DNA from: a virus
Taxonomy: Duplodnaviria; Caudoviricetes
DNA length: 64,000 bases
Virus record (IMG/VR): IMGVR_UViG_3300001528_000378
Span: 94,132 to 158,131 of that record
Direction: 5' to 3' (one strand)
The translations under genes were made by a program, and so were the position numbers. The notes under the pieces were generated by a model. The model had not been told where the DNA came from, made no database searches, and worked only from the letters and a program-made list of their open reading frames with translations. This document shows, piece by piece, positions 7,424-32,811 of this stretch (position 1 is the stretch's first letter; each line of letters begins with the position of its first letter).

Positions 7424-7495
7424 AAAAATAATTAATATGGTTAAATCCTTATTAATAATATACCATATTAATTTTAACTTGTCAAGTAATATTTT

Positions 7496-7582
7496 GTGTC
7501 GTTGCCAGAATCGAACTGGCTCAATCGTCCTACGTTATAAACATCATCGGACATTTGCGTGCTACCATTACACCAAACGACT
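7496..7582 (-). ncRNA. tRNA-like RNA copy 1; anticodon arm replaced by a kink-turn-like hairpin
   Basis: Acceptor GTCGTT/AACGAC, D-arm GTGT-AATGGTA-GCAC, T-arm GCCAG-TTCGATT-CTGGC, central GTCC-GAT-GA-TGTT-TAT-AACG-TA-GGAC. Confidence 0.8.
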
Positions 7583-9967: not shown

Positions 9968-10312
9968 CTATTCCTCTACATCGCTGCATATCTCACTGTG
10001 CGTTAATTTCATATTATACTTTGCCAAAATTAAATTATAAAAATATATTGGAAAAGTATACTTGTTATTAAAAACACTATTATTCAGTTCATTAACCGGA
10101 ATTTCATTCTGAAACTTTTTCAATTCACCCAAAAAATCTTTAGAATAACATGTTTCTAATAAACAATCTATATACTCGCATACGTCACCTTTTATATCTT
10201 TCTCTTCCATTTTCGTTTTGTCATATTTCCATTCTTTAATAAGAAATTGACAGCCATAATAAGTAGTATTAGTTGAATATAACCTAAACGCAAACATAAT
10301 AAATTTCCTCAC
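9968..10312 (-). CDS. Hypothetical protein
   Basis: 114-aa ORF on the coding strand. Confidence 0.5.
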   Translation of the reverse strand: MRKFIMFAFRLYSTNTTYYGCQFLIKEWKYDKTKMEEKDIKGDVCEYIDCLLETCYSKDFLGELKKFQNEIPVNELNNSVFNNKYTFPIYFYNLILAKYNMKLTHSEICSDVEE

Positions 10313-10322
10313 TTTATTTTTT

Positions 10323-10482
10323 ATTTCAATATGCCAATTAGTTACTCGTGGTTTCCACTGCAGTGTTTGTTCACTAATCGCTCTTTGCTTGTTGTACTTA
10401 ACATGTAATTAGTCTGTAGCACTCTATATGTACCTAGCACGTTTCTGACATATAGCAATCAACTTTCGTTGAATATTGAAAC
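10323..10482 (-). ncRNA. Unassigned ~160-nt structured RNA downstream of tRNA-Ala
   Basis: Closing stem TTTCAATAT/ATATTGAAA; TCAAC-GAAA-GTTGA; CTATATGT/ACATATAG; GTGG-AAA-CCAC. Confidence 0.55.
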
Positions 10483-10492
10483 AAAATCTATA

Positions 10493-10565
10493 TGGAGCTG
10501 ATCGGGTTCGAACCGACGACCCCCTGCTTGCAAAGCAGGTGCTCTCCCAACTGAGCTACAGCCCC
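10493..10565 (-). tRNA. tRNA-Ala(TGC)
   Basis: Canonical GGGGCTGTAGCTCAGTTGGGAGAGCACCTGCTTTGCAAGCAGG...; G3:U70. Confidence 0.95.
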
Positions 10566-10574
10566 TAAAATCCG

Positions 10575-10661
10575 TGCCCACCCTTGGACTTGAACCAAGA
10601 CAAGCGTCCTACGTACTAATTACATCATCGGACTTGTGCGTGCTACTTACACCAAGCGGGC
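10575..10661 (-). ncRNA. tRNA-like RNA copy 2; anticodon arm replaced by a kink-turn-like hairpin
   Basis: Acceptor GCCCGCT/GGTGGGC-A, D-arm GTGT..GCAC, T-arm CTTGG-TTCAAGT-CCAAG, central GTCC-GAT-GA-TGTA-ATTAG-TACG-TA-GGAC. Confidence 0.8.
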
Positions 10662-10666
10662 AAAAT

Positions 10667-11312
10667 CCACTGGAAAGTTAAACCCTTATACTCTCATAGC
10701 CCTATAAAAGGGCATCATATTTTAGCGATACTGGTCGCAAGGGAATTTAGATCACAGTGGTGTTCCCAGAAGCAATTTATCTAAGAACAAAGACACACCA
10801 ACTGTGGTATGTGTGTGCCCCAACCAATAGTTCTTTACACTAGTTTTATAAGTACCACTCTTTCCTTCTAATGTCCACGGACTATTACGTGAGTCATTCA
10901 GACCATAAGCTATCCTTTCGCGGTAGCAGCTAGATCGGTTTCTAAGGCACCTAATCCGGCCCAGGTTGAGTTTTTAGTGTGGCTCAGCCTCATGTACATG
11001 GTTCGGCCTAAAAAGGACCATTCGGTGCATTTTAGGCCCAGGAATGTGTATGGTATTACACACCCTAACTGTGCATCTTCTACGGGGTTTAACCGCAATT
11101 TCGGTAGCGGTCCTATGGTTCGCCAAGCTCACAGGGGAGCATGGGTTTCCTTGCGGTTCAAGGCATAGGATGCGATTGTTCCTGGAAGAACAGGATTTCG
11201 TCACCAACGTTTATTTTCCCCTACACAGTTTACTACACTAGGAGGTAGTTTTAGGTCATAACTCCACGGACCCCAGCTTCTCTGCTGGAACTGCAAAGCG
11301 CACTTCGCAGTA
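10667..11312 (-). ncRNA. Large (~650 nt) highly structured ncRNA candidate, between tRNA-Thr and tRNA-like copy 2
   Basis: GC clearly above background, no credible ORF with an RBS, more than 15 hairpins and long-range stems visible by eye. Confidence 0.7.
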
Positions 11313-11323
11313 TATTTACTAAA

Positions 11324-11397
11324 TGGAGCCGGAGAAGGGAATCAAACCCTTGTTTGATGCTTACAAGGCAACTATTCTATCATTGAATTACTCCGGC
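11324..11397 (-). tRNA. tRNA-Thr(TGT)
   Basis: GCCGGAG/CTCCGGC-TCCA; loop CT-TGT-AA. Confidence 0.88.
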
Positions 11398-11408
11398 CTT
11401 ATATTTAT

Positions 11409-11437
11409 ACTATACTAAATTATTTTACTTTTGTCAA
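11409..11437 (-). promoter_or_regulatory. sigma70 promoter for the tRNA-Thr/large ncRNA operon
   Basis: TTGACA-17-TATAGT; spacer contains AGTAAAATAATTTAG, shared with 12122-12150 and 13862-13890. Confidence 0.75.
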
Positions 11438-11791
11438 GCTTTCACCTTTGTAATCATTATAATTACAATAGGGTTCAAACTTTACTGGTGGTACATTAGT
11501 AGGCCACACAAAAGGTTGAGTAGGAACACTTGGTATAATAGGATTAGTTACTTCTTTGATAGTTACTGGAAATTCCCCATGAAGTAAAACATTCTCCAAT
11601 CCTTTCTTTAACCAATTAGTTTTTATATTCTCATAGGCATCTAAAACCAAATCCACTTCTGTAATAGATTTTAAGTTTGTTTGTGTTAAAAGTTGCTTAA
11701 CTAGAATACTATCTAACTTACTAAGGTTAGCATTAGGATGTAGCGAACTAAAGTTTTCAACAATAGTTTTAATATCGTTAATTGTCAACAT
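11420..11791 (-). CDS. Hypothetical protein with Pro-rich C-terminus
   Basis: AAGGAG SD. Confidence 0.6.
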   Translation of the reverse strand: MLTINDIKTIVENFSSLHPNANLSKLDSILVKQLLTQTNLKSITEVDLVLDAYENIKTNWLKKGLENVLLHGEFPVTIKEVTNPIIPSVPTQPFVWPTNVPPVKFEPYCNYNDYKGESLTKVK

Positions 11792-11811
11792 ATATTCTCC
11801 TTAAAAGTATT

Positions 11812-11844
11812 AACAGTTGTTCTAATCGATTGAGCTATAAGCGC
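11812..11844 (-). pseudogene. tRNA 5'-half remnant (Arg-like)
   Basis: GCGCTTA-TA-GCTC-AATCGATTA-GAAC-AACTG. Confidence 0.4.
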
Positions 11845-12094
11845 GAAATCTTCTTGTGTGGTTTACTTATAATACATCAGGAACAACATCCCTCCGTAAA
11901 TATAAATATAAATAAACAGATATAGATTTTTACATCAACCGGCTGGTGTCTGCTCCCAACTCATAATACATACCTTATGTTGTATAGGTATTCCCAGACA
12001 GGGTAGGGCATAAGGTGTACCAGGTATCTGTACTATACCAAGTGGCAGTTGGCCTATACACGTCTTACTCACTTATTCATTTAAGCACACAAAA

Positions 12095-12150
12095 CTTTCA
12101 AATATCAATTTACTTCTTATATATATACTAAATTATTTTACTTTTGTAAA
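12095..12150 (-). promoter_or_regulatory. Promoter followed by boxA-like TGATATTTGAAAG
   Basis: TTTACA-17-TATATA, then the boxA-like word at 12095-12107. Confidence 0.55.
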
Positions 12151-12157
12151 GTATAAA

Positions 12158-12290: not shown

Positions 12291-12320
12291 TGCGCCCACA
12301 AGGACTTGAACCTACCGTAA
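12291..12320 (-). pseudogene. tRNA 3'-half remnant (Arg-like) right after the endonuclease stop codon
   Basis: TTACGG-TAGG-TTCAAGT-CCTTG-TGGGCGC-A. Confidence 0.55.
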
Positions 12321-12323
12321 TAT

Positions 12324-13112
12324 TTATTTTGATAATGCTAAATAATTTTTACAATCTTCATCTTTTATTATACTATTTATTCCTAATTTTTTCATTACTC
12401 TACTATCAACTATATTTATTTTTTTATCTTTTGGAAATTGCGTCCACTTAAAATAATCTTTTATTGTTTTATATCCTTTAACTTCAACATATTCATTTAA
12501 TTCTGGCAAATAAAAATCTGGAAAATATTTATGTGTTTTATTTAAATAAAAATAATCAAAACCAATTTTATTTCTTAAAAAATTTATATTATTTTTGTCA
12601 CACCATATAGCAAATTTTAATTCATAAGTTCCTTGTAGTTTTATATTTTTATATATATAAGTTTTTACGTATCCGCGTTTATAAGTTCCAATATATTTAT
12701 CGGGATTATTGCTTATATATTTTTTTATACCTATTGATATTTTTTGTTTCCATAACTCTTTATTTTTAGCAATAGATTTTTTATGTTTTCCCAAACTATG
12801 ATTTTGTTTATATGTTTTACTTTGTTTTAAAATTCTTTTATCTATTTCTTTTGTTAAACCTTTATTCCAAGCAACTCTTGTACCATTTTTATAGCCAGCA
12901 ATACATTTATTACAAAATTCTGCACCTTCTTTAGTATGCTTTCTCCAAATATGTGTAGCAATCCCCATTTTAGAATATTCTTTATTACATATTGGGCAAA
13001 TATATTTATTATTTTTAATAATACATTTAGATATAATTTCTAATATTACTTTATTACGTTGTTTTTGTTTGCCACAATACTTACAAATATACTTATTATC
13101 TTCAAGCATCAT
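12324..13112 (-). CDS. Homing endonuclease: C2H2 zinc finger, NUMOD3-like segment, PD-(D/E)XK nuclease
   Basis: CPICNKEY..H..H; AWNKGLTKE; YFPDFYLP...YVEVKG. Confidence 0.8.
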   Translation of the reverse strand: MMLEDNKYICKYCGKQKQRNKVILEIISKCIIKNNKYICPICNKEYSKMGIATHIWRKHTKEGAEFCNKCIAGYKNGTRVAWNKGLTKEIDKRILKQSKTYKQNHSLGKHKKSIAKNKELWKQKISIGIKKYISNNPDKYIGTYKRGYVKTYIYKNIKLQGTYELKFAIWCDKNNINFLRNKIGFDYFYLNKTHKYFPDFYLPELNEYVEVKGYKTIKDYFKWTQFPKDKKINIVDSRVMKKLGINSIIKDEDCKNYLALSK

Positions 13113-13160
13113 TTAATACCTAGTTTAAATTTAAACAGAGCTATTAACCAAAACTATAAG

Positions 13161-13256
13161 TGGCAGGTACTGGACTCGAACCAGTAACACGGTCTTATCT
13201 GGGCCGCGCTTTACGGGGTTATAAATCCCGCCCTTTAACCATTAAGCTAACCTGCC
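13161..13256 (-). tRNA. tRNA-Ile(TAT) with extra-long variable arm
   Basis: GGCAGGT/ACCTGCC-A; CGGGA-TT-TAT-AA-CCCCG; ~28-nt variable region with GCGCGG..CCGTGT stem. Confidence 0.8.
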
Positions 13257-13830: not shown

Positions 13831-13890
13831 GTTTCAAATAACAATTATTTCTTATATTTATAATATACTAAATTATTTTACTATTGTCAA
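13831..13890 (-). promoter_or_regulatory. sigma70 promoter plus boxA-like TGTTATTTGAAAC heading the tRNA/ncRNA operon
   Basis: TTGACA-17-TATATT at 13862-13890; boxA-like word at 13831-13843. Confidence 0.65.
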
Positions 13891-13973
13891 GTTATATTTT
13901 TATTTTTTTACTATTACTTAACAAATATATTATAGCATATTATTCTAAGTTTGTCAAGTGGGTAATTTTATAC

Positions 13974-29583: not shown

Positions 29584-32500
29584 TTATTTTTTATCTGCTT
29601 GCTTTAAATCGACAAACTTGCGCCTCTTAAACTCCCAGTCACGACGAACAGGGTTCCAGTCCTCAACTTTTGTAAAAAATCCAATTACACGAGAATAGTG
29701 GTCAAAGGATTTGTTACCACATTTAGGACAAATACTTGCATTTCCAACAACAACATTGTGGCACTCTCTACACTGACTATATACTACATTAATAGCAAAG
29801 TGTTCACAACCACACTCAACTGCATGTAGAATAATATTTTTAGCCTGAGCGGATGTTACCTTACTATTTGCTTGAGCATGAACAATACCACCACCAGACA
29901 ATAATTGGTTATATTTTCCATCTATATCTAACCTTTCATAAATAGTTGCATCATGCCATAACGCACAAAATTGGTTTGCATACAAGGGGTCTAAATTATA
30001 TGGATTACCATAAATTAACTTATCTGCATCAGCCAAACGAACTCCAAAACTTTCAGCAGGGATTTGCTCCACATTAAAAATAATACCATTTTCTTTAGAG
30101 TATTTTCTGCACATCTCATTAAACTTGACTAGAATATCACCCATATAATCAAAGTCATTTTTACCATACTTTTGTAAAATAATTTGCTGTGCTTCAACAA
30201 TACCAAGAACACCAAAAGTGCTAAACATATGACTCATGTTAATCCAACCATTTTTTAAAAATGGTTCTAATCCAATAGCACTTAATTTTTTAATTAATAC
30301 TTTATGTGCCTTTAAAATTTTTGCAGCAGATTCCACACGTTTATCCAATAGTTTCAAGTACTCATCATAATTATTGGTTTCATACGCCAAACGAGTAAAA
30401 TTAATTGTAACAACTCTATGTGATCCAAGAGAAATATTACTACCACCAAAACTATTAACCGAAGCACCCATATCCATTAGTTCTGTGTTATTTATCATCC
30501 GGCAATTATGCGTAATAATACCATTTGCAATTTGGAACAGGTGATTGTCATTTTCTACTGTAAAATCATACACATGCACACCCTTTTTAGTTTTTATATG
30601 TTCAATTTTTTCAATTTGAATACCATAATAGTCACCAAAATCACTTAACACAGTGGATTTAGAAAGAGCACCTCTTCCATTTCTCCAATCCTGTAATGGT
30701 TTTAATTTAAGTTTATCATTGTGCATAATTGAAATAACACAATCATTTCCATTACTACCATTTCTATAACCACATCTAATATTTACAGAGTTTGCAAGAG
30801 CAACCAAATCCATACCTAGTTCTTTATTGGCAATATGGATAGATACATAATCACCCCTCATATTATCACAAGTATGACCATTACCTTCAATAAAACCCTC
30901 TAAAAATCCAATTCTAAAATCATAACTCATATTAAAAATTCTAGAACGTAAACGCTTATCGGTACATAAGTTCCCAACAAAGAAATCTCTCATTGTAGCA
31001 TGAGCCATTCTACTATTGATGGATACTCTTGTTGAATTTGGCCAAATGTCAGAAACTGTGACATTGGTTGTTGCTGCTAATCTATCTTTGGAAAAATTTA
31101 CTACAAAATCTTGTAGTTCTTTTTCTTCAGTATGAAAGGAAAGTGCAATATCAGTATTACGTCTTATATCATACTGACCCTCTGCCCCAAATAACCCTAC
31201 AAAACGTCCAAAATCGCGGTCACCCCCGAGAATACTATCATAGGAAATATTCTTGGATACAGGAAGCATATCCCCAACTTTTAAGTCATTAGCTTGAACT
31301 TCTACCAAAGATCCATTATTTAATACTTTTACAGATGGGTGGTCAAGTGTTGTTGTTATAACTAACCCACTTTTCAGAGTCACTTTATTCAAAGTTCTAT
31401 TTTCATTTAAGATTGAAAATCCATTGGTTATTTTAGTAAAACCATTCGCACCCATAATCTCAATTACTTTATTTTCTTTGGATTTATCCCATATATCAAA
31501 TAACTGTTTTACAGTAATATAACGCACATAACCATCCACCCTTGCGATCACTTTTGTTGTTGAAGTTAAGCAGCAGCTTGCTATTTTCGTACCATAGGAA
31601 GTGAAAATATTATACTTGGAAATATCCTTAGTTAGCATATAGGACAGCAACTCATTATCCTTACTTAACTCATCTTTTCCTGTCTCTTCATTTTTATGCT
31701 TTGAAAAATTTACAGTAACAACAGGAAATCTATAATTAATTCCACCGTTAATTGTATCCCCTTTATCAAAGAAATCTACAAAGATTTTTTGTAATTCAAA
31801 CACATAATCTTTTACAAAATTTTTATAGTCTTCATTTGAAAGTTTATATTCTTCCCCACCCAAATTATTATCTACACGAACCTGAACTTTATTTGGGAAA
31901 AGCCATCCATAGTTTTCATCAGACAAAAATGTATCTAATTTTTCTTTATCAAAAATAGAGATATTTGTAAATGGGCTTTCATTCCCATTACGAGATAAAA
32001 AGTTCACTGAGTGAACAAACTGTTGAAATTCATTCTCAATACGTTTTCTTACTACTTTATCTTCCTTAATAGAGGATAAGGGAATACGCTCTTTGTAAAT
32101 CAATAAGTGAGCACAGTCTGTAAAAAATGAACCAATAGCAACTGCACCAGCCAAATGAGAGGCGAGCTGGTGCACTGTTTCACACAAGGCAGAAATATAA
32201 GAGGATAAACGCTTTGATGGCTTTGAAGGAAGTGTACCAAAATCACGTCCAGTAGTAATTAATTTTGAAGCATCAATAGCATAGCAATATGGGATCAAAA
32301 TATTAGAACTATCTGATAGACCCAATGAGAAGTCATACATCTCTCCACATAACCGTTTTGCTTCGTCTTGGCCATATAATTCTTTCATTGTACGATAAAG
32401 CATATCATACCCAATAATTTTATCTGCTGGTAATTCCAAGTCCTTTAAGACACCCTTGATACTCTTCTCACCCTTATTAGCATTTGCATCAATAGAGATA

Positions 32501-32811
32501 TCATTGATGTTAGAACTCATATATTTTGAAAACCCATTAATAAAATCAAAATTGTCTTCATGTAATCCATGAATTTTGAGTAAACCGTCAACAATAGATT
32601 TTAATTCACCATTTGTTTTACCATATTTTTTCTTTAATGTTTTAACTAATGTTTCTCTGATATTTTTGATAGTTCTGGTTGTACCAGCGTCCGCAAATGT
32701 TTTATCAGTAATCTTATCTAGTTCTGCTTGATACTGCTTATCATCTAAATCTTGAATATATTTATCATTATAATTAACTTTAATAGGCTTTTTTACCAAT
32801 TCATTTTCCAT
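29584..32811 (-). CDS. nrdD: Anaerobic ribonucleoside-triphosphate reductase with intein
   Basis: GAVA, SPFTNISIFD, FPVVT, ASC|CR, EQIPAES, C-terminal CxxC-CxxC and RVIGF glycyl-radical motif. Confidence 0.93.
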   Translation of the reverse strand: MENELVKKPIKVNYNDKYIQDLDDKQYQAELDKITDKTFADAGTTRTIKNIRETLVKTLKKKYGKTNGELKSIVDGLLKIHGLHEDNFDFINGFSKYMSSNINDISIDANANKGEKSIKGVLKDLELPADKIIGYDMLYRTMKELYGQDEAKRLCGEMYDFSLGLSDSSNILIPYCYAIDASKLITTGRDFGTLPSKPSKRLSSYISALCETVHQLASHLAGAVAIGSFFTDCAHLLIYKERIPLSSIKEDKVVRKRIENEFQQFVHSVNFLSRNGNESPFTNISIFDKEKLDTFLSDENYGWLFPNKVQVRVDNNLGGEEYKLSNEDYKNFVKDYVFELQKIFVDFFDKGDTINGGINYRFPVVTVNFSKHKNEETGKDELSKDNELLSYMLTKDISKYNIFTSYGTKIASCCLTSTTKVIARVDGYVRYITVKQLFDIWDKSKENKVIEIMGANGFTKITNGFSILNENRTLNKVTLKSGLVITTTLDHPSVKVLNNGSLVEVQANDLKVGDMLPVSKNISYDSILGGDRDFGRFVGLFGAEGQYDIRRNTDIALSFHTEEKELQDFVVNFSKDRLAATTNVTVSDIWPNSTRVSINSRMAHATMRDFFVGNLCTDKRLRSRIFNMSYDFRIGFLEGFIEGNGHTCDNMRGDYVSIHIANKELGMDLVALANSVNIRCGYRNGSNGNDCVISIMHNDKLKLKPLQDWRNGRGALSKSTVLSDFGDYYGIQIEKIEHIKTKKGVHVYDFTVENDNHLFQIANGIITHNCRMINNTELMDMGASVNSFGGSNISLGSHRVVTINFTRLAYETNNYDEYLKLLDKRVESAAKILKAHKVLIKKLSAIGLEPFLKNGWINMSHMFSTFGVLGIVEAQQIILQKYGKNDFDYMGDILVKFNEMCRKYSKENGIIFNVEQIPAESFGVRLADADKLIYGNPYNLDPLYANQFCALWHDATIYERLDIDGKYNQLLSGGGIVHAQANSKVTSAQAKNIILHAVECGCEHFAINVVYSQCRECHNVVVGNASICPKCGNKSFDHYSRVIGFFTKVEDWNPVRRDWEFKRRKFVDLKQADKK
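30505..31572 (-). mobile_element. 356-aa intein with LAGLIDADG endonuclease in NrdD
   Basis: Starts CLTSTT, TxxH (TLDH), GLFGAEG / GFIEGNG, ends THN|C. Confidence 0.92.

Follow-up and report, generated by a model that had tools for sequence, protein, structure and literature searches.

A candidate structured non-coding RNA outside Rfam within a predicted tRNA precursor of a gut phage

Introduction

ROOL and GOLLD are protein-free RNAs that were recently shown to build nanocages and whose function is unknown. In MALAT1/mascRNA and in the tRNA-linked RNAs of bacterial tRNA operons, RNA ends are made by tRNA-processing enzymes acting at a flanking tRNA-like structure. ROOL is a large phage and prophage RNA (~580 nt) of unknown function that contains multiple helices and often lies beside tRNA islands (10.1101/2024.12.08.627333; PMC5737381). 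GOLLD, a large ornate RNA of phages and prophages, is often found near tRNAs or even contains them, and has a conserved and a variable part (10.1101/2024.12.08.627333).

The locus analyzed here also lies in a phage tRNA island, where a gene-free stretch is bracketed by a genuine tRNA and a tRNA-like element. On balance, and with moderate confidence, we favor the explanation that this stretch encodes an undescribed, narrowly distributed, structured non-coding phage RNA that falls outside Rfam, is part of a single tRNA precursor, and consists of a conserved portion (nt 1-532) and an optional 3' module.

Results

A gene-free stretch within a tRNA transcription unit

The window, meaning the entire 64,000-nt stretch of DNA that was analyzed, makes up the final 64 kb of an IMG/VR phage record of 158,131 bp that has direct terminal repeats, and related contigs originate from gut metagenomes, including Hadza human samples. 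The minus strand carries, in order, a promoter, tRNA-Thr(UGU), 662 gene-free nucleotides, a tRNA look-alike, tRNA-Ala(UGC), a spacer, and an open reading frame, as follows (window coordinates).

11409-11437, minus strand: sigma-70-type promoter (TTGACA, 17 nt, TATAGT), ending ~12 nt before tRNA-Thr
11324-11397, minus strand: tRNA-Thr(UGU) with encoded CCA, directly followed by the start of the candidate RNA
10662-11323, minus strand: gene-free candidate RNA stretch of ~660 nt (662)
10575-10661, minus strand: tRNA-like element of 87 nt with acceptor, D, and T arms, the anticodon arm being replaced by a 33-nt arm
10493-10565, minus strand: tRNA-Ala(UGC), the final RNA gene of the unit, followed by a 180-nt spacer
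9968-10312: 114-codon ORF after the spacer
7446-7486, 11398-11438, 12111-12151, 13851-13891, and 13918-13958: a 41-nt repeat (family D1) that carries the promoter and occurs five times in the tRNA island

The flanks are those that an earlier note on this DNA had described, with tRNA-Thr(UGU) on one side of the stretch and the tRNA-like element, which scored 25.9 bits against a tRNA cut-off of 29, on the other. All tRNAs share one strand, and no strong terminator was found within the candidate stretch. We propose that the promoter at 11437-11409 would drive synthesis of one minus-strand precursor containing tRNA-Thr, the RNA, the look-alike, and tRNA-Ala, and that host tRNA-processing enzymes would cut this precursor to free a stable RNA. 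RNase P, which requires only a stack of acceptor and T arm, both of which the look-alike keeps, could cleave on the 5' side of the look-alike or, in a shorter natural variant, on the 5' side of a tRNA-Asp; trimming of the 3' end of tRNA-Thr would free the other end of the RNA. The look-alike would not be essential for release, because the short variant adjoins tRNA-Asp.

The look-alike has a paralogue at 7496-7582 (minus strand), in which the acceptor and T stems differ in sequence yet still pair and the central motif, GUCCGAUGAUGU..ACGUAGGAC, is nearly identical. A homologue in a related phage (G002, L011:11630-11716) has a compensatory change from GUCC/GGAC to AUCC/GGAU. A search for the exact central motif gave 0 matches elsewhere in IMG/VR.

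Neighboring genes and rearrangement of the tRNA island

The RNA sits in a fast-changing part of the genome that holds tRNAs, DNA methyltransferase genes, which adjoin the tRNA island in the window, and, in relatives, anti-defense genes. The latter, encoding Tad3 (PF25185) and Sequestin (PF21825), lie beside the island at L016:1917-2640 and in L013, L017, and L019; a gene for ribosomal protein S21 (PF01165) is also present in contig L020. The five 41-nt promoter repeats punctuate the island, probably delimit transcription units, and may act as recombination points.

Elsewhere on the minus strand of the window, an endonuclease-like ORF (12324-13112; phrog_15137) lies between a 96-nt tRNA match (13161-13256) and a T-arm/acceptor fragment (12291-12312). 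The layout of 12291-13256 would be consistent with a tRNA gene interrupted by an intron that encodes a homing endonuclease, although the Rfam group I model scored below threshold throughout the window. The gene for the anaerobic ribonucleotide reductase NrdD (29584-32811, minus strand) contains an intein (PF14890, residues 433-769).

The position of the cassette relative to a 109-aa ORF differs between contigs, and repeated spacers flank the cassette. In L012, a 1503-nt gut metagenome contig from ENA, the ends overlap exactly by 127 nt, which is the k-mer size of the assembler, and a cassette of tRNA-Ser, tRNA-Thr, the RNA, the look-alike, tRNA-Ala, and the spacer thereby assembles as a 1376-bp circle. 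Since L023 has the spacer on either side of the cassette, a repeat-induced artefact is the most likely source of this circle, which may alternatively be a tandem or excised form. Taken together, the shifting position of the cassette, the repeated flanking spacers, the self-closure of L012, and the double spacer of L023 indicate that the island has been shuffled by recombination.

Natural variants and their distribution

We reached variants of the stretch through a protein index, using a spurious 73-aa ORF on a homologous contig and the cluster of the neighboring 109-114-aa protein. Five further distinct variants, 93-97% identical to the window, were found on gut metagenome contigs: L012, L020, L022, and L023 are full length (93.7-95.8% identity), and L016, to which L018 is equal over the stretch, has only nt 1-532 (96.8% identity). 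In addition, L026 carries an identical copy of the window stretch. Identity among variants is 93.6-96.5% in the core, 93-96% in the spacer, 91-94% in the adjacent ORF, and 98.6-100% in the look-alike and tRNA-Ala.

Outside this group, BLAST of the region against 50,697 cultured-phage records gave no match, and the nearest IMG/VR relatives, G001 and G002, yielded no counterpart when searched with BLAST, nhmmer, and a covariance model for domain I (nt 94-257). L002/G001 (64% complete) has an identical tRNA-Thr, but ORFs follow directly and the RNA is missing; G002, a complete 170-kb genome with 85% terminase identity, weakly matched only the tRNA look-alike part. The RNA is thus dispensable, as close relatives do without it. 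The domain I model matched known variants only. Six degenerate 24-nt patterns from a 77-aa pseudo-ORF gave no confirmed match in IMG/VR or JGI metagenomes, a 22-mer of the 5' module gave one chance match in an unrelated high-GC phage (L029), and a 22-mer of the invariant core gave 0 matches in JGI metagenomes and GTDB genomes. None of these searches brought up a distant homologue, so the RNA lacks a consensus structure in the proper sense.

Just upstream of the tRNA cluster of G002 (L011:6994-8746) lie 1.75 kb that hold no ORF of at least 70 aa and have a GC content of 0.37, rising to 0.44 in parts. This segment had no Rfam match at E<=0.01 and no similarity to the candidate RNA.

Modular architecture

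The variants and the predicted fold divide the stretch into three modules, numbered from the nucleotide after the CCA of tRNA-Thr; the features are listed in 5' to 3' order on the minus strand.

11246-11323, minus strand: 5' module (nt 1-78) with three hairpins, CUGCGAAG/CUUUGCAG, CCAGC/GCUGG, and GGUC/GACC
10792-11245, minus strand: core (nt 79-532; GC 0.47) with a multi-helix domain, a series of hairpins, and an end hairpin at nt 513-532
11123-11144, minus strand: helix CCAUGCUC/GAGCUUGG, in which one pair is A-U in the window, G-C in L016, and a broken U-U in the four other variants
10963-10990, minus strand: helix AGGCUGAG/CUCAACCU, in which the central pair is C-A in the window, U-A in L023, and A-U in L012
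10876-10891, minus strand: helix CACG/CGUG, with a compensatory G-C to A-U change in L016 (CACA/UGUG)
10793-10812, minus strand: hairpin ACAUACC..GGUGUGU followed by CUUUGUUCUU (nt 513-532), a weak terminator-like site
10662-10791, minus strand: 3' module (nt 533-662; ~130 nt; GC 0.38), missing in L016 and L018

Domain I of the core is closed by AACUGUGUAGGGG/CCCC..CACAGUU, and in the 3' module the closing pair of a GCCCU/AGGGC hairpin is G-C, U-C, or U-A among the variants.

In every variant the RNA follows tRNA-Thr(UGU) and starts right after the CCA. Two complete tRNA-Thr(UGU) genes of differing sequence precede it, as does a third, cut by the end of contig L020, that was identified as Thr(UGU) by eye. 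The 5' module and core are kept in all six variants, and the full set of three modules is contiguous and in the same order in four of the five variants other than that of the window. In L016 and L018, the RNA stops exactly after the hairpin at nt 513-532 and tRNA-Asp follows. In L017 and L013, the 5' module alone (nt 2-79 retained) follows tRNA-Thr, and is succeeded by a hairpin and U run that we read as terminator-like. Because natural variants drop the 3' module, the conserved unit is nt 1-532. The earlier note had pictured an ornate RNA inside a tRNA operon; its non-coding and structured nature, its minus-strand orientation, and its place within a tRNA transcription unit hold up, and the single molecule of ~650 nt is less secure, given natural variants with nt 1-532 or nt 1-78.

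From these sequences, the stretch is modular and could correspond to one RNA with an optional 3' module or to as many as three separate RNAs. In the latter arrangement, a tRNA-Thr trailer with three hairpins (nt 1-78), a core RNA of ~450 nt, and a 3' RNA of ~130 nt would form a row of small RNAs or processing elements, each released or terminated alone. We regard this as possible, at perhaps the strength of a tentative second choice. It draws support from the occurrence of the modules apart from one another in nature, from the lower GC content of the 3' module compared with the core, and from the terminator-like hairpin placed exactly at the end of the 532-nt variants. Moreover, a single helix (nt 79-89 with 450-460) links the 5' edge of the core with the 3' part of the core; it is predicted by thermodynamics only and is broken in two variants. 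Several observations argue the other way. The site at nt 513-532 is weak, with three G-C pairs and an interrupted U run; neither an internal promoter nor a tRNA-like processing site was found within 10662-11323; and the modules stay together in most variants. We continue to favor, with moderate confidence, a structured RNA with an optional 3' module.

Folding and patterns of substitution

The minimum free energy (MFE) of the stretch is -206.1 kcal/mol, compared with -180.9 +/- 7.9 kcal/mol for 120 dinucleotide-preserving shuffles (z = -3.17), none of which folded as stably (0/120). The corresponding energy of the antisense strand is -194.1 kcal/mol (z = -2.73), and the sense-strand fold contains 25 G-U pairs. 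The GC content of the stretch (0.45) exceeds the values for the neighboring ORFs (0.30 and 0.27), the spacer (0.32), and the window (0.34). No tandem repeats were found in the stretch. A 10-nt palindrome, CAUGUACAUG, was considered as a dimerization site and dropped, as we estimate that chance would yield ~0.6 palindromes of this kind in 662 nt.

All complementary pairs listed in the earlier note are literally present on the minus strand, including two imperfect helices, CTGCGAAG/CTTTGCAG with one G-U pair and AGGCTGAG/CTCAACCT with one C-A mismatch. Most of the listed helices recur both in the thermodynamic fold and in the RNAalifold consensus of the six variants; these are CTGCGAAG/CTTTGCAG, CCAGC/GCTGG, GGTC/GACC, the long-range closing stem AACTGTG/CACAGTT, TCCTG/CAGGA, TCCTATG/CATAGGA, CCTTG/CAAGG, GGCCTAAAA/TTTTAGGCC, AGGCTGAG/CTCAACCT, and the terminal CACTG/CAGTG. 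Three others fared worse. ACCGC/GCGGT is contradicted by the variants, in which the first strand varies freely in the manner of a hairpin loop (ACCGC, ACCAC, ACAAC, ACCAT); this strand behaves as a loop closed by CCUUG/CAAGG, and the local partner of GCGGU is CCGC (ACCGC-UA) instead. ACTAC/GTAGT is broken in L012, where U-to-C and A-to-G changes would keep a 3-bp UAC/GUA helix in its place. AAGAAC/GTTCTT cannot form in the 532-nt variant, which does not contain GTTCTT. The variants speak neither for nor against the loop-loop contacts proposed between GGAG and CUCC and between GCACC and GGUGC, where a G-U pair survives one C-to-U change.

Comparison of the variants provides several lines of evidence that bear on selection for structure. 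To avoid circularity, the structure was predicted from the window sequence alone, and the 86 substitution events in the five other variants were then mapped onto it. First, substitutions avoid the predicted stems, with 43 in the MFE stems (53.9 expected; P = 0.009), 31 in the centroid stems (45.2 expected; P = 0.0008), and 38 in the maximum-expected-accuracy (MEA) stems (51.0 expected; P = 0.002). In a circular-shift control that preserves the clustering of substitutions, 17, 2, and 6 of 661 shifts did as well. Second, pairs in which both sides had changed and were still paired numbered 3-4 compared with 0.6-0.7 expected (P = 0.029, 0.016, and 0.0025) among six sequences that are at least 93% identical; the examples are the changes listed above for CACG/CGUG, GCCCU/AGGGC, CCAUGCUC/GAGCUUGG, and AGGCUGAG/CUCAACCU. 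Third, a loop indel that converts GAAU to AGAUGA leaves its ACC/GGU stem intact. One-sided changes that preserve a pair were at the level of chance (18 compared with 16.7 expected), and some of the variants disrupt several of the predicted pairs. The core also diverges at roughly the pace of the adjacent spacer and ORF, and far faster than the look-alike and tRNA-Ala, and the truncated variants indicate that a large portion of the stretch can be lost. With only six distinct sequences, all at least 93% identical, the evidence from covariation is thin; within this set, the comparative tests are suggestive of structure under selection. We consider it likely that the stretch encodes a structured RNA under selection.

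A non-functional relic, such as leftovers of recombination or the decayed remains of an intron or RNA gene within a highly plastic tRNA island, would retain GC content and foldability as marks of its ancestry. The absence of the RNA from close relatives and its shortening in others, a rate of divergence as fast as that of the neighboring spacer, and clear signs that the island has been rearranged at repeated promoters, spacers, and tRNA ends are all compatible with such an origin, and intron-derived material would have been available, given that group I introns interrupt tRNA genes of this island in G002 (described below). Neutral debris, however, would show neither the avoidance of stems by substitutions nor the excess of compensatory changes. 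In addition, no group I or group II intron model matched at E<=10, and the 660-nt non-coding insert persists, with 93-100% identity, across at least six independent gut samples. We judge this origin to be unlikely and retain the reading of a selected, structured RNA.

Comparison with known RNA families

We ran cmscan on the whole window at gathering thresholds and, with permissive filters, on 10400-11500 against the 4227 families of Rfam 15 at E<=10. Only tRNAs were detected in the window-wide search, and the permissive search returned only tRNAs, the tRNA-like element, and noise. ROOL (RF03087; gathering score 99.1 bits) had no match at E<=10 in 10400-11500 by cmscan, a run that worked in that it detected the tRNAs, or in the whole 158-kb phage, where the ROOL-specific search had no positive control, the control genomes also being blank. 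GOLLD (RF02032; gathering score 150 bits, conserved 3' region) had no match at E<=10 in the region or the whole phage. Group I and group II introns (RF00028, RF00029, and the group-II-D1D4 families, of which RF01998 is group-II-D1D4-1 in the Rfam library used) likewise had no match at E<=10, and both flanking RNA genes are complete. Models of RNase P RNA, tmRNA, OLE, and HEARO gave no match, and an ARAGORN search for tmRNA was blank. The reluctance of the earlier note to assign the RNA to GOLLD or ROOL is borne out by these results. Motifs resembling RNase P RNA that had been recognized by eye were dropped, as no model supported them.

In G002, tRNA genes are interrupted by two group I introns (L011:11123-11577 and 11755-11943; 42.2 and 59.4 bits). 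Judged by eye, an endonuclease-like ORF is present in one of them, and a gene resembling tRNA-Leu is split by the other. Because the same search picks up these introns, the intron models are effective for phages of this group.

A strongly diverged member of ROOL, GOLLD, OLE, RNase P RNA, tmRNA, or a group I or II intron, unrecognized by the models, would fit the size and setting of the stretch as far as ROOL and GOLLD are concerned (10.1101/2024.12.08.627333). We consider this very improbable in view of the searches above, in which nothing except tRNAs and noise appeared. An RNA outside these families is the explanation that we prefer.

Coding potential

Each of the six frames of the stretch contains two or three kinds of stop codon, and therefore no single codon reassignment opens a frame. 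The indels among variants are 1 or 2 nt long, and two of them fall inside the longest (77-aa) ORF. Variable sites are distributed 10/11/10 over the codon positions, so there is no codon periodicity or third-position bias; the lack of a conserved reading frame is a generic property of structured non-coding RNAs. Four short pseudo-ORFs in the stretch had no Pfam or PHROG match, and protein searches with pseudo-ORFs, one of which led us to L012, recovered nothing but this locus on other contigs. A coding function for the stretch, perhaps under a non-standard code, can thus be set aside as exceedingly improbable, even though gene callers place ORFs of 62 to 77 aa in the stretch and some related contigs were called with TAG as glutamine.

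Some ENA calls of the neighboring 109-aa protein (L022, L023, L024, and L025) translate only with TAG read as glutamine, and a 143-aa form (L022-L024) appears to overrun its stop into tRNA-like sequence. These calls look like artefacts rather than recoding, because the standard code leaves the large ORFs of the window open.

Discussion

The RNA proposed here probably belongs to the broad type of RNA represented by ROOL and GOLLD, without being a member of either family. That it represents a new class of RNA is plausible, though the case is built on six sequences that are at least 93% identical. During infection, it may serve as an accessory RNA-only factor or RNA scaffold, as has been proposed for ROOL and GOLLD. 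An accessory role in host takeover or counter-defense fits its neighborhood of methyltransferase, Tad3, and Sequestin genes and its patchy distribution. A more ambitious idea, by analogy, is that this RNA of 530-660 nt is the founder of a third class of ornate phage RNA, which would be cut from a tRNA precursor by tRNA-processing enzymes of the host, would self-assemble into a multimer made only of RNA, and would act in host takeover or counter-defense; we regard this full combination as a long shot.

As an object of study, the RNA has the weaknesses of a very narrow distribution and an uncultured host. Its natural deletion variants (78, 532, and 662 nt) and its fixed link to tRNA-Thr(UGU) offer a guide for the design of constructs. 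Each independent, unrelated large RNA from this genomic setting adds weight to the view that phages have repeatedly evolved RNAs of this type together with their tRNAs, and each further example provides an extra handle on what RNAs of the ROOL/GOLLD type do.

How, then, does the candidate compare with described systems? Like the MALAT1/mascRNA type, it is bracketed by tRNA structures, with a genuine tRNA upstream and a tRNA-like element that has acceptor and T arms downstream; it differs in that its short variant has an ordinary tRNA-Asp downstream. It resembles ROOL in size (530-660 nt) and in its tRNA-island setting, but the two have no detectable similarity in sequence or structure. ROOL is widespread, with strong covariation, whereas the candidate is represented by six near-identical sequences. 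The cage formed by ROOL is octameric. Finally, the conserved and variable parts of GOLLD parallel the modular make-up of the candidate, with the polarity reversed: GOLLD conserves its 3' region, whereas the phage RNA described here keeps its 5' 532 nt and treats the 3' module as optional.
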